Under the pieces are notes generated by a model. The model was not told the DNA's origin, searched no databases, and saw nothing but the letters and a program-made list of their open reading frames with translations. 11,959 nucleotides of DNA, taken from the IMG/VR virus record IMGVR_UViG_648276647_000018. One strand, given 5' to 3'. Origin of the DNA: a virus (Duplodnaviria; Heunggongvirae; Uroviricota; Caudoviricetes). The position numbers and the translations under genes were made by a program. Shown here piece by piece: positions 2,805 to 11,959 of the stretch. Numbering within the stretch: the first letter of the stretch is position 1; each line of letters begins with the position of its first letter.

Positions 2805-2906
2805 CGCACGCTTTGCGGGGCGGTTTTAATGCAGTTGCACTGACACGCTCAGACCGCGCCGGGAATGGCGCGGTCTGCAGAAAATGAGGCAGGGAAACGC
2901 ATGCAA

Positions 2907-2939
2907 AGCCATGCACCTTATCGATGCATGGCTTTTTTC
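2907..2939. terminator. Hairpin with T-run between cos and the psu stop; possible terminator, strand uncertain.
   Basis: Stem agccatgca (2907-2915) and tgcatggct (2925-2933), followed by TTTTTT (2934-2939) on the plus strand. A second inverted repeat gaccgcgcc/ggcgcggtc lies at 2852-2875. Confidence 0.4.
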
Positions 2940-2968
2940 AGTAAAAACAGGCGGATTTTCGGGAAATT

Positions 2969-3541
2969 TTACACAGACTGACGTGATGCCAGTTGCGCAC
3001 TTTTACGCGAAAAAATCATGTTCTGCGCAGGGGTGAATTTTTCACGGCTGTCGTCCACCGAAGCCGCGTCAGGCCTGAATCCGATGGTCGTTAAAATGTC
3101 GCTATCCTGTGCGGAATAATTAATTTTTTCCCCCTTCGCAAGCCAGGACAGAAGGGCTTCACGCAGGGCATCTGTGGCACGCTGTATGGCACAGTTTCGG
3201 GCAATGGCCGTCAGCTCACTGTAGCCCATCAGCTCCGGTGCCAGTGCCGCCGCCAGTGCTGTGCCGTGCTGCTGCATAAAATCATTCAGCCGGTCGCGGA
3301 TGCTGATGTGCTGAACGGCTTCATGCGAACGAATATAACGACCGGCGGCCTGATTCACCTGCCATTTTCTGACTTCGATAATATTGCGTAATTCGTCCAG
3401 GCGACTGACGTTTCTGCCTTCTCCTGACAGAAGCCGCAGGTATTCCTGTTCGGCCGCTGCCAGCTCATTTTTGCGTTGCAGCCATGCTGCTTTGTTATTC
3501 TGACAGGTGTCAAAGGCCTGCTGTAAGGCTGTGCTTTCCAT
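2969..3541 (-). CDS. psu: Psu, polarity suppression / capsid decoration protein.
   Basis: 190 aa. The translation MESTALQQAFDTCQNNKAAWLQRKNELAAAEQEYLRLL... matches P4 Psu in sequence and length as I recall it. It is the last gene of the sid-delta-psu operon, read toward cos. Confidence 0.9.
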   Translation of the reverse strand: MESTALQQAFDTCQNNKAAWLQRKNELAAAEQEYLRLLSGEGRNVSRLDELRNIIEVRKWQVNQAAGRYIRSHEAVQHISIRDRLNDFMQQHGTALAAALAPELMGYSELTAIARNCAIQRATDALREALLSWLAKGEKINYSAQDSDILTTIGFRPDAASVDDSREKFTPAQNMIFSRKSAQLASRQSV

Positions 3542-3614
3542 CGTTATCTCTTTCTCATCATGCTGAAGAATAAAAATACGGTGTGTGGCGACGGCCGGTG
3601 TTAACCGGCAGCCC

Positions 3615-4115
3615 TCATTCCAGACGCAGCGAATATGATTGTGTTTTTAACCGTACTGGCGGCAGTTCCTGTTTTTCATGCAGGCGTTCTGCCAGTTCGT
3701 CCGGCGTGACCGGGCGGACAATGAAGCGGGTGATGGTCTGAAGCGTTTTAAACACCAGACCACAGCCCGGATCCGTGCACACATAAAAACGCTCGGTGAC
3801 TTCCTGAGACAGACCCCGCGATGTTCTTGACAGCGCAAGGCCTTTACATCTCCGACAACAATATCCGGTAACAAGCATTCTTTTCGGGCGCTTCATGCTG
3901 CCGGAGGCTGACGTCAGTGAATCGCGGTATCTCTGTTTGCCTGAAATGTATTCCATTCCTGAATCTTTACAGTCAGAGAAAAAGCTTTCACTCGCTTCAA
4001 ATGTCGCAGAGCAATAAATATTCCGGCACTGTGCAATCATTATCTTGGTGCCATCGTCCATGAAATGTGCGCGACGGGTGTGAGCAACATGTCCACACGA
4101 CGGGCAGTAAATCAT
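3615..4115 (-). CDS. delta: Delta, Ogr/Delta-family zinc-finger late-gene transactivator.
   Basis: 166 aa starting at MIYCPSCGHVAHTRRAHFMDDGTKIMIAQCRNIYCSATFEASESFF, with a second Ogr-like module (YVCTDPGCGLVFKT). The start is the ATG at 4113-4115 with an AGGA SD. The longer 185-aa ORF in the track is an in-frame upstream extension. Confidence 0.85.
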   Translation of the reverse strand: MIYCPSCGHVAHTRRAHFMDDGTKIMIAQCRNIYCSATFEASESFFSDCKDSGMEYISGKQRYRDSLTSASGSMKRPKRMLVTGYCCRRCKGLALSRTSRGLSQEVTERFYVCTDPGCGLVFKTLQTITRFIVRPVTPDELAERLHEKQELPPVRLKTQSYSLRLE

Positions 4116-4846
4116 GACAGCAGTCCTCTGGCCTTCAGCTCTGCTCCCTGCTGGTCTATTTTGTCCTGCCACACCTTGCGCTGTGCCGGTGTGCCTGCCA
4201 CCTCATAATCCATGTGCGGGAGTGTTGCCGCTGACAGTCCGGTCAGCCGGAGAACCGGCTCGCCGGTGAGGCTGATTTGCATCTGTTTAATTTTCTGTTC
4301 CAGCGATGATTTCACCTGCTGCATGACAGCCTTTTCCGGTGCGACGTAGCCCTGATGGCCGGTGGTGTTGGCGAGCGGATTTTCCTGTACCAGAATGCTC
4401 AGATGCATTGCCCGGACAAGCGCCTCACAGGTTTCATTCAGGGCGTGTTCCAGCTCATGCTCTGCATACAGACTCAGAAGGTGATGATGTGCCTTCCGGT
4501 AGGCGGTGGCCGTGCTGTCACACGCCCCTTTCAGGCGTTCACGTTCGAAATTCAGCACCACGGCCAGATTGTCATATTCCTGTACCAGCTCCCGGCGTGC
4601 CACGCGCTCAATGTGGCGCTGTTTCAGCTCGTCGCTCAGGACACCACCGGCTGCACGAAAGGCCGTGCGCCAGTCGTCAGCGTCATTTCCGTCGGCCTGC
4701 GTCAGCGCATTTTTTTCCTGCTCTGCCCGTTCAATGGCCGTGACGGTCTCATCCATCAGGCGGGCGTTCTCAAGATGAGCGGCTCTGGCCTTTTCCAGTT
4801 GTGCCAGTGCGGGTTGCAGATATTCAGGGATGGTGTTGTCAGACAT
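4112..4846 (-). CDS. sid: Sid, capsid size-determination (external scaffold) protein.
   Basis: 244 aa starting at MSDNTIPEYLQPALAQLEKARAAHLENARL with a GAGGAG SD upstream. The stop at 4112-4114 overlaps the delta ATG (ATGA overlap). The 266-aa ORF in the track is an upstream extension. Confidence 0.85.
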   Translation of the reverse strand: MSDNTIPEYLQPALAQLEKARAAHLENARLMDETVTAIERAEQEKNALTQADGNDADDWRTAFRAAGGVLSDELKQRHIERVARRELVQEYDNLAVVLNFERERLKGACDSTATAYRKAHHHLLSLYAEHELEHALNETCEALVRAMHLSILVQENPLANTTGHQGYVAPEKAVMQQVKSSLEQKIKQMQISLTGEPVLRLTGLSAATLPHMDYEVAGTPAQRKVWQDKIDQQGAELKARGLLS

Positions 4847-4918
4847 TTTCCGGCTCCTCGTCACTTCAGGTTGAGAAAATTGTGACGTACACCGGACAGC
4901 AACACGACGCATTGCAGA

Positions 4919-4936
4919 TGTGCCAGCCCTGACACA
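4919..4936 (-). promoter_or_regulatory. Putative Delta/Ogr activator site (TGT-N12-ACA) of the late promoter Psid.
   Basis: tgtgccagccctgacaca is centred about 82 nt upstream of the sid ATG. A second TGT-N12-ACA lies at 4881-4898. Delta/Ogr/Cox-activated P2/P4 late promoters carry this dyad near -55. Confidence 0.4.
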
Positions 4937-5015
4937 GGAGACTCATCCTCAGACCGGCAAGCCAGGAAAAGGTCGCAGGAAAAACCGGCTTACTGTTTGT
5001 TTTTTTATATTTTAC

Positions 5016-5120
5016 TGTTCACCTCTGTTCACCATAAGAAAAAAGATAAGTAATACAGTAAGTTAAAGGGTGAACAATCGCAGTAATGACTGTTCACCGT
5101 CTGTTCACCACTGTTCACCC
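5016..5120. repeat. Replication origin (ori): six copies of the type I iteron TGTTCACC.
   Basis: Direct copies at 5016-5023, 5026-5033, 5091-5098, 5103-5110 and 5113-5120, plus one inverted copy (ggtgaaca) at 5069-5076. The region is AT-rich. It lies about 4.8 kb from crr, as in P4. Confidence 0.7.
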
Positions 5121-5169
5121 GTTGATGGGCTTTTTGTGCTGTTTATTACTTTTTATTTTTATTAATTCA

Positions 5170-5215
5170 CTGAAATAAATAAGAAAAAACAATTTGTATT
5201 TCACTATAATTTTTT
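5170..5215 (+). promoter_or_regulatory. Possible constitutive early promoter (PLE-like) for the vis-to-alpha operon.
   Basis: Perfect TATAAT at 5205-5210 in an AT-rich tract. I could not pick out a good -35 at 17-bp spacing. Confidence 0.25.
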
Positions 5216-5397
5216 CCAGCTCCTTCCAGAGCGTTTTAAAGCTATCTGGCGCTGATGTACAAAAAATGCACAGCCATTGTAAGGCTGCCGGAACAAATCC
5301 CCCCTGTTGCGTCTGCTGAAAATATTCACAAAATAAAGCGCTACCCGAAGCCGGACGGACTTATCCGGTGCTGTATGGACATTAACGAGGTAGCCCG

Positions 5398-5664
5398 ATG
5401 CAAGCTGTTTTTTCTTCCCCGTCTCCCGCCCCTGTTACGCCACTGATGCCGCTGCCGGACATCACGCAGGAGCGTTTTTTACGTCTGCCGGAAGTGATGC
5501 ACCTGTGCGGCCTGTCACGCTCGACCATCTATGAACTCATCCGTAAGGGGGAATTTCCGCCGCAGGTGAGTCTTGGCGGTAAAAATGTGGCCTGGCTGCA
5601 CTCTGAAGTCACCGCATGGATGGCCGGGCGCATTGCCGGACGCAAACGGGGGTACGACGCATGA
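5398..5664 (+). CDS. vis: AlpA/Vis-family helix-turn-helix regulator (excision and late-gene control).
   Basis: 88 aa with a GAGG SD 7 nt upstream. The core [48 protein letters not shown] is the classic AlpA/Vis HTH. Confidence 0.8.
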
Positions 5665-5756
5665 TGATGCCCGCTCTGCAAAAAGTCCCTTTTTCTGGCT
5701 TGCCTTTTTCCGGCATTTGCGGATATAGTTTTTCCGCTGCCGCAAAATCGGCAGCC

Positions 5757-6047
5757 GGGCGTAGGAACCCGTGTAACTCGAAGGCGACATATGACGCGCC
5801 ATGCGTCTTTTTTTGTGTCGCAATCAACGCCACAGAGCGCCAGATTATGGTGTGGCGTGTGGTTTGCCGTGCAGGTATGATCCTGTTCGCAATCGCATGT
5901 TATGCCACTGAGTCAATGGTAGCTCAGGCGGGGCAGCCTCCGGGCTGGCCGGTATTCTTCGAGGCCGGTATTCCTACCCCCGTCTGGGCTATCGCCATCG
6001 AGCGTAGGAACTCCGGCGATAGCAGTTATTTGCTACTCGAAGGAGAC
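5757..6047 (+). promoter_or_regulatory. CI-RNA-type immunity region: seqA-like and seqC-like direct repeats flanking a complementary seqB-like element.
   Basis: gcgtaggaac...ctcgaagg occurs at 5759-5784 and again at 6002-6043. Between them, cttcgag (5957-5963) and ttcctac (5971-5977) are the antiparallel complements of both halves. A 9-bp inverted repeat gctatcgcc/ggcgatagc lies at 5978-6023. Confidence 0.45.
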
Positions 6048-6053
6048 TGCCTT

Positions 6054-6251
6054 ATGGCTACAACCCTTACCCCTTCACACCCTGAATTTGTCTTTGTGTT
6101 TGCGGCTGTCCGTCGCGCAGACCGTCATCCCCGTATCTGCATGCTTCGCACCGTCGCCGGTGATGAACGCAGCGCCCGCCGTTCCCTTGTCCGTGACTAT
6201 GTGCTCTCCCTTGCTGCCCGTCTGCCGGTGGTGGAGGTGTCCCGTGCGTAA
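6054..6251 (+). CDS. Hypothetical small early protein (65 aa).
   Basis: ATG with an AGGAGA SD 7 nt upstream. It is the 3' part of the long 5616-6251 reading frame, whose upstream portion overlaps vis and the immunity repeats and is probably non-coding. Confidence 0.45.
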
Positions 6252-6531
6252 TAAAAAAGCCCCTCAGACCGTCTCAGCACGTCATGACGCCCGTGAACAC
6301 CTCAGCATTGAGGCTTACCATAAGCTCAACCGCGCCAGCGCCGTATCCCAGTTTGTTGGGGGTGATTTGATTCACCGTGAACTCTCCGGCCTGCATCAGC
6401 TCTACATTCCGCATATTTTCAGCTACCTGAATGAAGATATTGATTTTGTGCTGAATGAGCTGAAAGCCAAAGGCCTGTGCCGCGATTTTCTCGCCCAGCA
6501 GAAAGACCGGGGAGACAGGACGCATGTTTGA
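6244..6531 (+). CDS. Hypothetical early protein (95 aa, GTG start); possibly epsilon-like by size and position.
   Basis: GTG preceded by GGAGGT at 5-nt spacing. The start overlaps the stop of the preceding ORF by 8 nt. The epsilon attribution is from uncertain memory of the P4 map. Confidence 0.5.
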
Positions 6532-6979
6532 TTTTCCCCAGCCCGGTGAGATTTACCGTTCTGCCGGTTTTCCCGATGTGGCCGTGGTCGGCATTCTGGA
6601 AGACGGTATTCCGTGGGAAATGCCGTACCGCTGCCCGGACATTGTCTGGAATCCGTACCGCCGTAAATTCAGTATCCTTGTGCGTATCCTCGCTGACGGG
6701 CGCACCACAGACATCCCGCTGGGGCGTTTTCTGCGGGAATTTACCTGTGACCGTCCTGACCTGTTCAGACGCAGCCCCGTAAACCGGCATGCGGTACTGA
6801 AAGAAATGGCCGGAGACCCGGAATTACAGAAATGGCGGGAGAAATATCTGGATATTTACCCGCAGGACCCTGTTCCGGTCAGCCGGGCGGCACCGGTGGC
6901 GCGGGAATGGCGGGAAATTCCCCGCACGGAGCCTGACCCGGAAATCACCCCGGATAACAGTTACCGCAATTATCTGTAA
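6524..6979 (+). CDS. Hypothetical protein (151 aa); size and position fit P4 orf151.
   Basis: The ATG overlaps the upstream stop (ATGTTTGA). Coding-like composition, same strand as alpha. Confidence 0.7.
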   Translation: MFDFPQPGEIYRSAGFPDVAVVGILEDGIPWEMPYRCPDIVWNPYRRKFSILVRILADGRTTDIPLGRFLREFTCDRPDLFRRSPVNRHAVLKEMAGDPELQKWREKYLDIYPQDPVPVSRAAPVAREWREIPRTEPDPEITPDNSYRNYL

Positions 6980-7114
6980 TTAAAAAACGACACCCGAAAA
7001 ATTAAATGTGCGTATTCGCGCAGGGATACGCACGTCTTCAGGAGACGCAGATATGCCTTATCAGTTAATGCAACCGGCACGGAATGCAGTCATCTGTCAC
7101 AGGGAGGAAAGCAA

Positions 7115-7435
7115 ATGACCCCCCCCTTACCGCCCGTCTTACGCGCAGCCCTTTACCGTCGCGCTGTCGCCTGTGCCTGGCTGACCGTGTGCGAACGTCA
7201 GCACCGCTACCCGCATCTCACCCTTGAATCACTGGAGGCTGCCATCGCCGCTGAGCTGGAAGGCTTTTATCTGCGCCAGCACGGTGAGGAAAAAGGGCGT
7301 CAGATAGCCTGTGCCCTGCTGGAAGATTTAATGGAATCCGGCCCCCTGAAGGCCGCGCCGTCGCTGTCCTTTCTCGGGCTGGTTGTGATGGATGAACTCT
7401 GTGCCCGTCACATAAAAGCGCCGGTACTGCACTGA
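7115..7435 (+). CDS. Hypothetical protein (106 aa) immediately upstream of alpha.
   Basis: GGGAGGAA SD 5 nt upstream of the ATG. It ends 14 nt before the alpha start. Confidence 0.7.
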
Positions 7436-7449
7436 AGGAGAACAACACC

Positions 7450-9783
7450 ATGAAAATGAACGTAACCGCCACCGTCAGCCATGCGCTCGGCCACTGGCCG
7501 CGTATTCTCCCGGCGCTGGGGATTCAGGTGCTGAAAAACCGTCATCAGCCCTGTCCGGTCTGTGGCGGGAGTGACCGCTTCCGTTTTGATGACAGGGAGG
7601 GGCGCGGCACCTGGTACTGCAATCAGTGTGGTGCCGGTGACGGCCTGAAACTGGTTGAAAAGGTGTTTGGTGTTTCCCCGTCCGATGCGGCCGCAAAGGT
7701 GGCTGCCGTGACCGGCAGCCTGCCCCCGGCTGACCCGGCAGTGACGGCTGCCGCCGGTGCTGAAACAGACGCTGCCCGGAAGAACGCCGCCGCACTGGCA
7801 CAAACCCTGATGGCGAAAACCCGTCCCGGAACCGGTAACGCCTACCTGACCCGCAAGGGCTTTCCCGGCCGGGAATGCCGGATGCTGACCGGCACACACA
7901 GAGCCGGTGGCGTGAGCTGGCGCGCCGGTGACCTTGTGGTGCCACTGTATGACGACAGCGGCGAACTGGTTAACCTTCAGTTAATCAGTGCTGACGGCCG
8001 TAAGCGCACCCTGAAAGGCGGACAGGTCAGGGGCACCTGTCACACCCTTGAAGGACAGAATCAGGCAGGAAAACGTCTGTGGATAGCGGAGGGATACGCG
8101 ACCGCACTTACCGTGCATCACCTGACCGGTGAAACGGTGATGGTGGCGCTTTCTTCCGTGAACCTCCTTTCTCTGGCCAGCCTTGCCCGACAGAAGTATC
8201 CGGCCTGTCAGATTGTCCTTGCCGCAGACCGTGACCTCAGCGGTGACGGCCAGACAAAAGCCGCCGCAGCCGCAGATGCGTGTGAGGGCGTTGTTGCCCT
8301 GCCGCCGGTCTTCGGTGACTGGAATGATGCCTTCACGCAGTACGGCGGGGAGGCCACCCGTAAGGCCATTTACGATGCCATCCGGCCACCGGCTGAAAGC
8401 CCGTTCGACACCATGAGCGAAGCGGAGTTTTCCGCCATGAGTACCAGCGAAAAGGCCATGCGTATCTATGAGCATTACGGCGAGGCGCTCGCGGTCGATG
8501 CCAACGGCCAGCTTCTGTCCCGTTATGAAAATGGTGTCTGGAAGGTGCTGCCACCACAGGACTTTGCCCGGGATGTGGCCGGGCTGTTTCAGCGTCTGCG
8601 CGCGCCGTTCTCCTCCGGGAAGGTGGCCTCCGTGGTGGACACCCTGAAGCTGATTATTCCGCAGCAGGAAGCCCCCTCCCGCCGCCTGATTGGCTTTCGT
8701 AACGGCGTGCTCGACACGCAGAACGGCACGTTCCACCCGCACAGTCCGTCACACTGGATGCGTACCCTGTGCGATGTGGATTTCACCCCGCCGGTGGAAG
8801 GGGAAACGCTGGAAACCCACGCCCCCGCGTTCTGGCGCTGGCTTGACCGTGCCGCCGGTGGCCGTGCGGAAAAACGCGACGTGATTCTGGCCGCACTGTT
8901 TATGGTGCTGGCAAACCGCTACGACTGGCAGCTCTTTCTGGAGGTGACCGGTCCCGGCGGCAGCGGCAAAAGTATCATGGCCGAAATAGCCACCCTGCTG
9001 GCCGGGGAGGATAACGCCACGTCGGCCACCATCGAGACGCTGGAATCCCCGCGTGAACGTGCCGCGTTAACTGGCTTCTCACTGATACGCCTGCCGGACC
9101 AGGAAAAATGGAGCGGCGACGGTGCCGGACTCAAGGCCATCACCGGCGGCGACGCGGTGTCCGTTGACCCGAAATACCGGGATGCGTACTCCACGCATAT
9201 CCCGGCGGTGATTCTGGCCGTGAACAATAACCCGATGCGCTTCACCGACCGCAGCGGCGGCGTGTCACGCCGGCGGGTGATTATTCACTTCCCGGAACAG
9301 ATAGCCCCGCAGGAGCGCGACCCGCAGCTTAAGGACAAAATCACCCGCGAGCTGGCGGTCATCGTGCGTCACCTGATGCAGAAGTTCAGCGACCCGATGC
9401 TCGCCCGGTCACTGCTTCAGTCCCAGCAGAACTCAGACGAGGCACTGAACATCAAACGGGATGCCGACCCGACGTTTGATTTTATCGGCTATCTGGAAAC
9501 CCTGCCGCAGACCAGCGGCATGTATATGGGGAACGCCAGTATCATCCCGCGTAATTACCGTAAATACCTCTATCACGCCTATCTGGCCTACATGGAGGCA
9601 AACGGCTACCGGAATGTACTCAGTCTGAAAATGTTCGGGCTGGGGCTGCCGGTGATGCTGAAGGAATACGGACTGAATTACGAGAAGCGCCATACCAAAC
9701 AGGGGATACAGACCAACCTGACGCTGAAAGAGGAAAGCTACGGCGACTGGCTGCCAAAATGTGACGACCCTGCAACAACCTGA
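7450..9783 (+). CDS. alpha: Alpha: bifunctional DNA primase / helicase with C-terminal iteron-binding domain.
   Basis: 777 aa with an AAGGAGA SD. N-terminal zinc ribbon (CPVCGGSDRFRFDD...WYCNQCG). TOPRIM-like motifs (IAEGYATALTV, LAADRD). Walker A GPGGSGKS (nt 8951-8974). The length matches P4 alpha. Confidence 0.95.
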   Translation: MKMNVTATVSHALGHWPRILPALGIQVLKNRHQPCPVCGGSDRFRFDDREGRGTWYCNQCGAGDGLKLVEKVFGVSPSDAAAKVAAVTGSLPPADPAVTAAAGAETDAARKNAAALAQTLMAKTRPGTGNAYLTRKGFPGRECRMLTGTHRAGGVSWRAGDLVVPLYDDSGELVNLQLISADGRKRTLKGGQVRGTCHTLEGQNQAGKRLWIAEGYATALTVHHLTGETVMVALSSVNLLSLASLARQKYPACQIVLAADRDLSGDGQTKAAAAADACEGVVALPPVFGDWNDAFTQYGGEATRKAIYDAIRPPAESPFDTMSEAEFSAMSTSEKAMRIYEHYGEALAVDANGQLLSRYENGVWKVLPPQDFARDVAGLFQRLRAPFSSGKVASVVDTLKLIIPQQEAPSRRLIGFRNGVLDTQNGTFHPHSPSHWMRTLCDVDFTPPVEGETLETHAPAFWRWLDRAAGGRAEKRDVILAALFMVLANRYDWQLFLEVTGPGGSGKSIMAEIATLLAGEDNATSATIETLESPRERAALTGFSLIRLPDQEKWSGDGAGLKAITGGDAVSVDPKYRDAYSTHIPAVILAVNNNPMRFTDRSGGVSRRRVIIHFPEQIAPQERDPQLKDKITRELAVIVRHLMQKFSDPMLARSLLQSQQNSDEALNIKRDADPTFDFIGYLETLPQTSGMYMGNASIIPRNYRKYLYHAYLAYMEANGYRNVLSLKMFGLGLPVMLKEYGLNYEKRHTKQGIQTNLTLKEESYGDWLPKCDDPATT

Positions 9784-9799
9784 CCATCATGACTCATCT

Positions 9800-9825
9800 G
9801 ACCGGCATCTGCCGGTCTTTTTTTA
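9800..9825 (+). terminator. Rho-independent terminator after alpha.
   Basis: Stem gaccggc (9800-9806), loop atct, stem gccggtc (9811-9817), then TTTTTTT. Confidence 0.55.
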
Positions 9826-9840
9826 TCCCTGAATTCCCCG

Positions 9841-10140
9841 AAGGTGAACAATCCACTGTTCACCCTTCACCGTATATTCACCCGTTATCACACTGAAATT
9901 AAAAGAGAAAAATGAAAGGTGAACAGTGTGAACAATCAAATCAAAAAAACTTTTTTTCTTCCGGTGTGATTTCAGCACGGGAAATTAATCCCCTGCACAA
10001 GTCACACCGGCAGAATGCCGGAGGTGAAGAATCGAATGTTCACCCTTCACCCATTATTCACCATCTATCACTCTGAAATAAAAGGAGAAAACAGAAAGGT
10101 GAACAGTGTGAACAGTTCTTTCGAAAAAAATTTTTTTTCC
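9841..10140. repeat. crr (cis replication region): two direct repeats of about 120 bp at a 180-bp period, each with TGTTCACC-type iterons.
   Basis: Repeat 1 (9841-9960) and repeat 2 (10021-10140) align almost base for base, with a 60-bp spacer between them. Each holds ggtgaaca / tgttcacc copies and ends in an A/T run. Confidence 0.75.
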
Positions 10141-10203: not shown

Positions 10204-10296
10204 GGTATACGATTAGGTATACGCACAAAAAATGAATTAAACAAAATCATTAAAAATCAAAGCAATACAATATTTATTCAAACTCCGCCAGCCCAC
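10204..10296 (+). other. Candidate right attachment site (attR): tandem ggtatacg arm-type repeats followed by a degenerate copy of the ssrA (tmRNA) 3' end.
   Basis: ggtatacg occurs at 10204-10211 and 10217-10224. ttcaaactccgccagcccacca (about 10275-10296) resembles the ssrA 3' end (ttcaactcccgccagctccacca, from memory) with three indels. The left repeat is not in the window, so this cannot be confirmed. Confidence 0.3.
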
Positions 10297-10428
10297 CAAA
10301 TAATGATTGGACGGTGTAAGGACTACACCAACAAAAACAGGAAGTTATAAGTCTCAGCAGGACACCGACCAGACGGTGAGGAGACAAAAAAGGATACGCA
10401 ACGGAGTCGCGACTCCCTATGACATTAA

Positions 10429-10882: not shown

Positions 10883-11959
<1,077 letters not shown>

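Follow-up and report, generated by a model that had tools for sequence, protein, structure and literature searches.

The origin of satellite phage P4 and its type I iterons in a mosaic P4-like prophage of Escherichia coli

Among described replication origins, the closest counterpart of the locus analyzed here is that of satellite phage P4, for which an origin, ori, and a second region, crr, have reportedly been characterized. The minimal P4 origin, ori1, is said to measure about 123 bp, to comprise six iterons and a 35-bp AT-rich region, and to be sensitive both to deletion of iterons and to insertions; binding of the P4 alpha protein to the type I iterons, and looping, have reportedly been described as well. 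[quoted passage not shown] In the record of the complete P4 genome (X51522), six features named ‘ori type 1 repeat’, in the order +,+,-,+,+,+, are placed inside a rep_origin feature (‘origin of DNA replication’), three tandem 10-bp ‘ori type 2 repeats’ (CTTTAAGTGG) are placed to the right of the iterons, and ‘crr (cis required region for replication)’ is annotated as a direct repeat of 120 bp, present twice and carrying five type 1 repeats in each copy.

With these descriptions we compared a stretch of 11,959 nucleotides (the window; IMG/VR record IMGVR_UViG_648276647_000018), in which a preliminary description had interpreted a cluster of short repeats at 5016-5120 as an alpha-dependent origin of the P4 type. 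X51522 annotates the six homologous sites inside its rep_origin, which supports that interpretation at the level of sequence. The six octamers are very probably the type I iterons of a P4 ori (ori1), carried by a P4-like satellite prophage at ssrA and operating through the alpha/crr mechanism proposed below.

The iteron origins of plasmids (such as pSC101, R6K gamma, F oriS and P1 oriR) share with the window locus phased direct repeats, an element-encoded initiator and an adjoining A/T-rich segment, as well as a second iteron cluster elsewhere on the replicon. They differ from it in that their iterons are roughly 17-22 bp long, compared with 8 bp in the window, and in that the window initiator is itself a primase-helicase, the tract is without DnaA boxes, and the P4 annotation gives crr, the distant cluster, a required and not an inhibitory role in replication. 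The window origin works like an iteron origin, yet it is not a member of the classical plasmid families, in which DnaA boxes adjoin the iterons and the Rep initiator has neither helicase nor primase activity. In the Rep-ori systems of SaPI/PICI satellites and the RepA-ori system of Vibrio PLE, the initiator is encoded by the satellite and the iterons flank or adjoin an A/T-rich region, as in P4; these initiators belong to families unrelated to alpha, and their origins adjoin the rep gene, whereas the P4 ori lies about 2.4 kb upstream of alpha, with crr downstream.

The prophage that carries the array

The window is a P4-like satellite that has integrated as a prophage. Its positions 2805-10137 match the complete P4 genome, in reverse orientation, with 97.1% identity, and the genes follow the order int, cargo, psu-delta-sid, ori, vis...cnr-alpha, crr, attR. 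Open reading frames in the P4-like stretch match Psu, Delta, an AlpA-type regulator (P4 ORF88/Vis, with 87 of 88 residues identical to P4 Vis), ORF106 and the alpha primase-helicase, the last two being encoded as follows:

7115-7435, + strand: ORF106, identical to P4 ORF106 at 104 of 106 residues and immediately upstream of alpha; presumably cnr, the P4 copy-number regulator
7450-9783, + strand: alpha, with primase (zinc ribbon and Toprim), SF3 helicase (D5_N, DUF5906) and C-terminal origin-binding domain (Pox_D5), from Pfam and comparison with P4

Alpha is identical to its P4 counterpart at 768 of 776 residues (99%), and residues 671-770, the origin-binding domain, are 100% identical to the crystallized P4 domain (PDB 1KA8).

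The ends of the window are not P4 sequence: they hold a tyrosine integrase gene (1-1212), a gene for a SIR2-family protein (1240-2598) and the host gene csiD/glaH (10982-11959). The integrase (+ strand) differs from P4 Int. The SIR2_2-domain protein, of 452 aa, is likewise encoded on the + strand, between the integrase gene and cos/psu, at the place taken by cII-beta-gop in P4. PADLOC matches it best to the candidate defence family PDC-S25 (2e-84) and more weakly to ThsA-like proteins, and its gene is probably anti-phage cargo in the known P4 hotspot. A search of the window with ARAGORN gave neither a tRNA nor a tmRNA gene. The same element is present in E. coli 2018-10-1CC directly downstream of smpB-ssrA, and positions 10276-10299 of the window (TTCAAACTCCGCCAGCCCACCA), an imperfect, short copy of the ssrA 3' end, are likely attR. 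Rfam models of the isrK leader and a1/b1 targets and of the C4 antisense RNA match at 5736-5813 and 5912-5999 (+ strand), and the P4 CI RNA immunity system is intact in the window element. With another integrase, integration at ssrA and other cargo, the element differs from P4, and the feature studied here is one already known, the P4 origin, within an otherwise mosaic P4-like prophage.

The iteron array, crr and the proposed mechanism

The preliminary description had counted six iterons, five direct and one inverted, and had called for a motif scan of the whole window. An exact scan for the octamer recovered precisely this set:

5016-5023, + strand: iteron 1, type I (TGTTCACC), exact match, equal to P4 ‘ori type 1 repeat’ L001 2212-2219 (L001 being the P4 locus)
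5026-5033, + strand: iteron 2, type I, exact match, P4 counterpart annotated
5069-5076, - strand: iteron 3, type I, inverted, exact match, P4 counterpart annotated
5091-5098, + strand: iteron 4, type I, exact match, P4 counterpart annotated
5102-5109, + strand: iteron 5, type I, exact match, P4 counterpart annotated
5112-5119, + strand: iteron 6, type I, exact match, P4 counterpart annotated

The iterons follow one another at start-to-start steps of about 10, 43, 22, 11 and 10 bp, in the orientation +,+,-,+,+,+, and the end given for the array, 5120, lies one base beyond the last of them. In a pairwise alignment with P4, where the set spans L001 2212-2315, all six iterons and every spacing are base-identical, in the same order and orientation, and the only differences within the array are two spacer bases, 5034 and 5038. 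Over the whole window, TGTTCACC occurs in 11 copies, compared with a mean of 0.42 in 200 dinucleotide-preserving shuffles, none of which reached 11 (the largest count was 3), and the exact scan found no copy outside the ori and crr clusters. A full-text search of the literature with the octamer returned unrelated primer sequences only.

The five exact copies in crr lie at 9843(-), 9857(+), 9918(-), 10037(+) and 10098(-), spanning 9843-10105. When one mismatch is allowed, five more octamers appear in this cluster, and the ten are divided between two repeats that are 82% identical to each other:

9838-9957: first 120-bp direct repeat of crr; its five type I iterons are at 9843-, 9857+, 9875+ (1 mismatch), 9918- and 9927- (1 mismatch)
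10018-10137: second 120-bp direct repeat of crr; its five type I iterons are at 10023- (1 mismatch), 10037+, 10055+ (1 mismatch), 10098- and 10107- (1 mismatch)

All ten crr octamers are unchanged with respect to P4. The octamer had been said to recur in crr 4.8 kb away, in keeping with the bipartite ori/crr architecture of P4; the two clusters indeed start 4827 bp apart, and both regions agree with the annotation of X51522, crr lying directly downstream of alpha.

The AT-rich tract in which the array had been placed is equally evident, with a GC content of 0.29 for 5000-5215 versus 0.51 for the whole window. Two segments within it are candidates for the site of unwinding:

5034-5068: A/T-rich spacer of 35 bp in the iteron array (GC 0.20) and candidate element for unwinding; in 10 diverged copies, 30 of its 35 columns do not vary
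5120-5215: A/T-rich flank on the right side of the array (GC 0.21) and another candidate region for unwinding, from duplex stability and the composition profile

Apart from the two substitutions, the spacer is that of P4. Duplex stability in the P4-homologous core is lowest for two 30-mers, one starting inside the array at 5039 and the other just to its right at 5153, the latter being the least stable of the core. Within 5000-5215, neither a DnaA box with at most one mismatch nor an IHF consensus was found, which fits an origin independent of the host initiator.

From the identical protein domain and the identical sites, we infer that alpha, a fused primase, SF3 helicase and winged-helix protein, would bind the iterons with its C-terminal domain. 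With a phasing of approximately one helical turn between iterons, the bound proteins would be aligned on one face of the DNA. Alpha would also bind the ten related iterons of crr, 4.8 kb off and just past its own gene, with looping probably joining the two sites. It would then open the neighboring A/T-rich DNA, in the 35-bp spacer, the right flank or both, and would prime synthesis and unwind the template with its own primase and helicase. For alpha binding, looping, the site of unwinding and DnaA independence, this scheme leans on published work on P4.

Neighboring promoters and conservation of the array

The array is flanked by the sid-delta-psu late operon on the - strand and by the vis...alpha operon on the + strand, and the closest promoter elements on either side are two dyads:

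4919-4936: TGT-N12-ACA dyad located upstream of sid and presumably the delta/Ogr site of Psid, from a pattern search
5278-5295: TGT-N12-ACA dyad located upstream of vis and presumably the delta/Ogr site of PLL, from a pattern search, conserved in the alignment

We take these dyads as marks of Psid and PLL, the late promoters activated by delta/Ogr. About 400 bp further to the right, near 5736 and about the start of the isrK match, is the early promoter PLE. The preliminary description had located the iterons between divergent late and early operons; the operons are divergent, but the opposition of late and early holds only roughly, because both of the nearest promoters are of the late type and PLE is farther off. 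A sigma-70 promoter scan of 4800-5450 gave no match and is uninformative, as activator-dependent promoters would give none.

A position between two activator-dependent promoters could also suit sites that are mainly regulatory, acting either as operators of the divergent late promoters or as partners of crr in copy-number ‘handcuffing’, and the second iteron set 4.8 kb off recalls plasmids that pair origin and control iterons. However, X51522 has a rep_origin at this place and terms crr ‘cis required’ for replication, a positive role, and the array holds A/T-rich, low-stability segments of its own that are typical of an unwinding site. We therefore regard a mainly regulatory function as improbable, noting that regulatory and origin roles are not mutually exclusive.

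Of 5426 complete E. coli genomes, 1007 have a match to the ori tract; identity ranges from 86 to 100%, all matches are on chromosomes, and none lies under an annotated feature. When 10 diverged copies from E. coli and P4 were aligned, identity to the window averaged 97.7% over the 48 iteron columns, compared with only 53% over a patch at 5210-5255, and the most divergent copy, NCTC9041, has kept all six iterons between flanks that can barely be aligned. Three natural variants of ori were also seen: 23CRST013 (L003) has a 10-bp deletion by which one iteron is lost, a7 (L004) has iteron 1 changed to TGTTTATC, and PEC422 (L010) has iteron 3 changed to GGTGAATA. Either some of the sites are non-essential or ori is defective in these prophages; if the published deletion data hold, the three may have a defective ori1.

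Such losses and mutations, together with the abundance of P4-like prophages, not all of which need be active, would be expected if the window prophage had kept a correct P4-type origin sequence but had ceased to replicate. We consider such a relic very improbable, since the ori-crr parts examined are all intact and near-identical to those of P4 (six and ten iterons; alpha 99%, cnr 98%, vis 99%), and since reading frames for psu, delta and sid are present along with the C4 RNA.

For comparison beyond E. coli, 80 alpha-encoding loci from other species were collected, with alpha 57-99% identical, of which 64 could be evaluated. In many genera, exact octamers cluster upstream of alpha and approximately 53 bp past its stop codon. 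A de novo search for a 7-mer clustered on both the ori and the crr sides yielded the iteron core in 27 of the 64 loci and, in 7 others belonging to the Pantoea group, a form with one mismatch, CTTCACC. In this group (L055-L059, L063, L085), the iterons drift to T/C-C-TTCACC with the P4 geometry retained, and the crr of P4 itself also contains the variant TCTTCACC, at window position 10023. With the motif reduced to the core TTCAC, we found the complete six-site P4 geometry in 38 of 64 alpha loci from many Enterobacterales genera, including 10 of the 21 loci in which alpha is 57-61% identical; shuffled sequence never gave more than two sites in this geometry. At least four sites were found in 55 of 64 loci, but partial matches of this kind are weak evidence by themselves, because a control on real DNA 1-3 kb past alpha reached four of six sites in 8 of 140 tests. 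The conservation of six sites across genera, set against the two sites at most in shuffles, indicates that site number, orientation and spacing are under selection, as would be expected of an initiator-binding array. With this geometry conserved across genera and the shuffles described above, the idea that the octamers cluster by chance or as a low-complexity artefact, which has only the shortness of the motif in its favor, is refuted.

Some loci in this set stand apart. Among distant P4-like elements, four (L049, L078, L080, L084) have kept most or all of the six-site ori array and one (L089) has two ori sites only; in none of the five were iterons found in the 420 bp downstream of alpha, and in these lineages crr may be elsewhere or absent. 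Four short contigs from metagenome bins labelled Clostridiales, Ferruginibacter and Ruminococcus (L011, L012, L013, L047) carry crr and an alpha that is 98-99% identical, and are most likely E. coli satellite DNA that was mis-binned.

The variable patch beside the iterons

A difference from the P4 origin region lies to the right of the iterons, where unrelated sequence takes the place of the type 2 repeats:

5210-5255 (P4 L001 2417-2449): variable patch replacing the ‘ori type 2 repeats’ of P4, from alignment and Cox-box scoring

Read on the opposite strand, the type 2 repeats of P4 form three 10-bp-phased P2 Cox boxes, TTAAA(G/C)NC(A/C), with scores of 7/8, 8/8 and 8/8. They are missing in the window, where the patch contains a single weak Cox box in the other orientation and is still made of 10-bp units (TTCCAGCTCC TTCCAGAGCG TTTTAAAGCT ATCTGGCGCT). 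A third allele occurs in TB21-1, PEC422 and 07_3636, and all three alleles are built of 10-bp units. The alleles were typed in the E. coli and P4 copies; on the cross-genus loci, the P4-specific pattern for extracting the patch matched the window only. The patch is probably outside the origin proper: we take the type 2 repeats to lie outside the minimal ori1, and their absence therefore leaves the membership of the iteron array in the P4 ori unaffected.

Two other roles for the patch were considered and rejected. For integrase arm-type sites, CTTTAAGTGG is unlike the arm repeats of P4 attP (GGGGGCA-type), and no meaningful 9-mer is common to the window patch and the att region. For co-variation with Vis, the protein is near-identical to that of P4 despite the different patch, and one Vis accession accompanies two patch alleles.

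Cox is known to bind upstream of the P4 PLL promoter (PMC3936717). It is plausible, though less likely than not, that the patch is a swappable helper-sensing module, of which the at least three unrelated alleles among P4-like satellites would be tuned to the Cox or Apl-like protein of different helper phages, the Cox-box array of P4 being the helper's derepression signal upstream of PLL. In that case, the helper to which the satellite in the window responds would not be P2.

There is nothing new in the iterons themselves, and they carry little weight as a discovery: they form the textbook P4 origin, which has been in GenBank annotation for decades and of which every iteron is identical here. 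Their practical value lies in annotation. In RefSeq records of the same element, the tract is without any annotated feature, and the comparison across genera shows that origins of P4-like satellites can be recognized by their six-site geometry, even at an alpha identity of about 60%.
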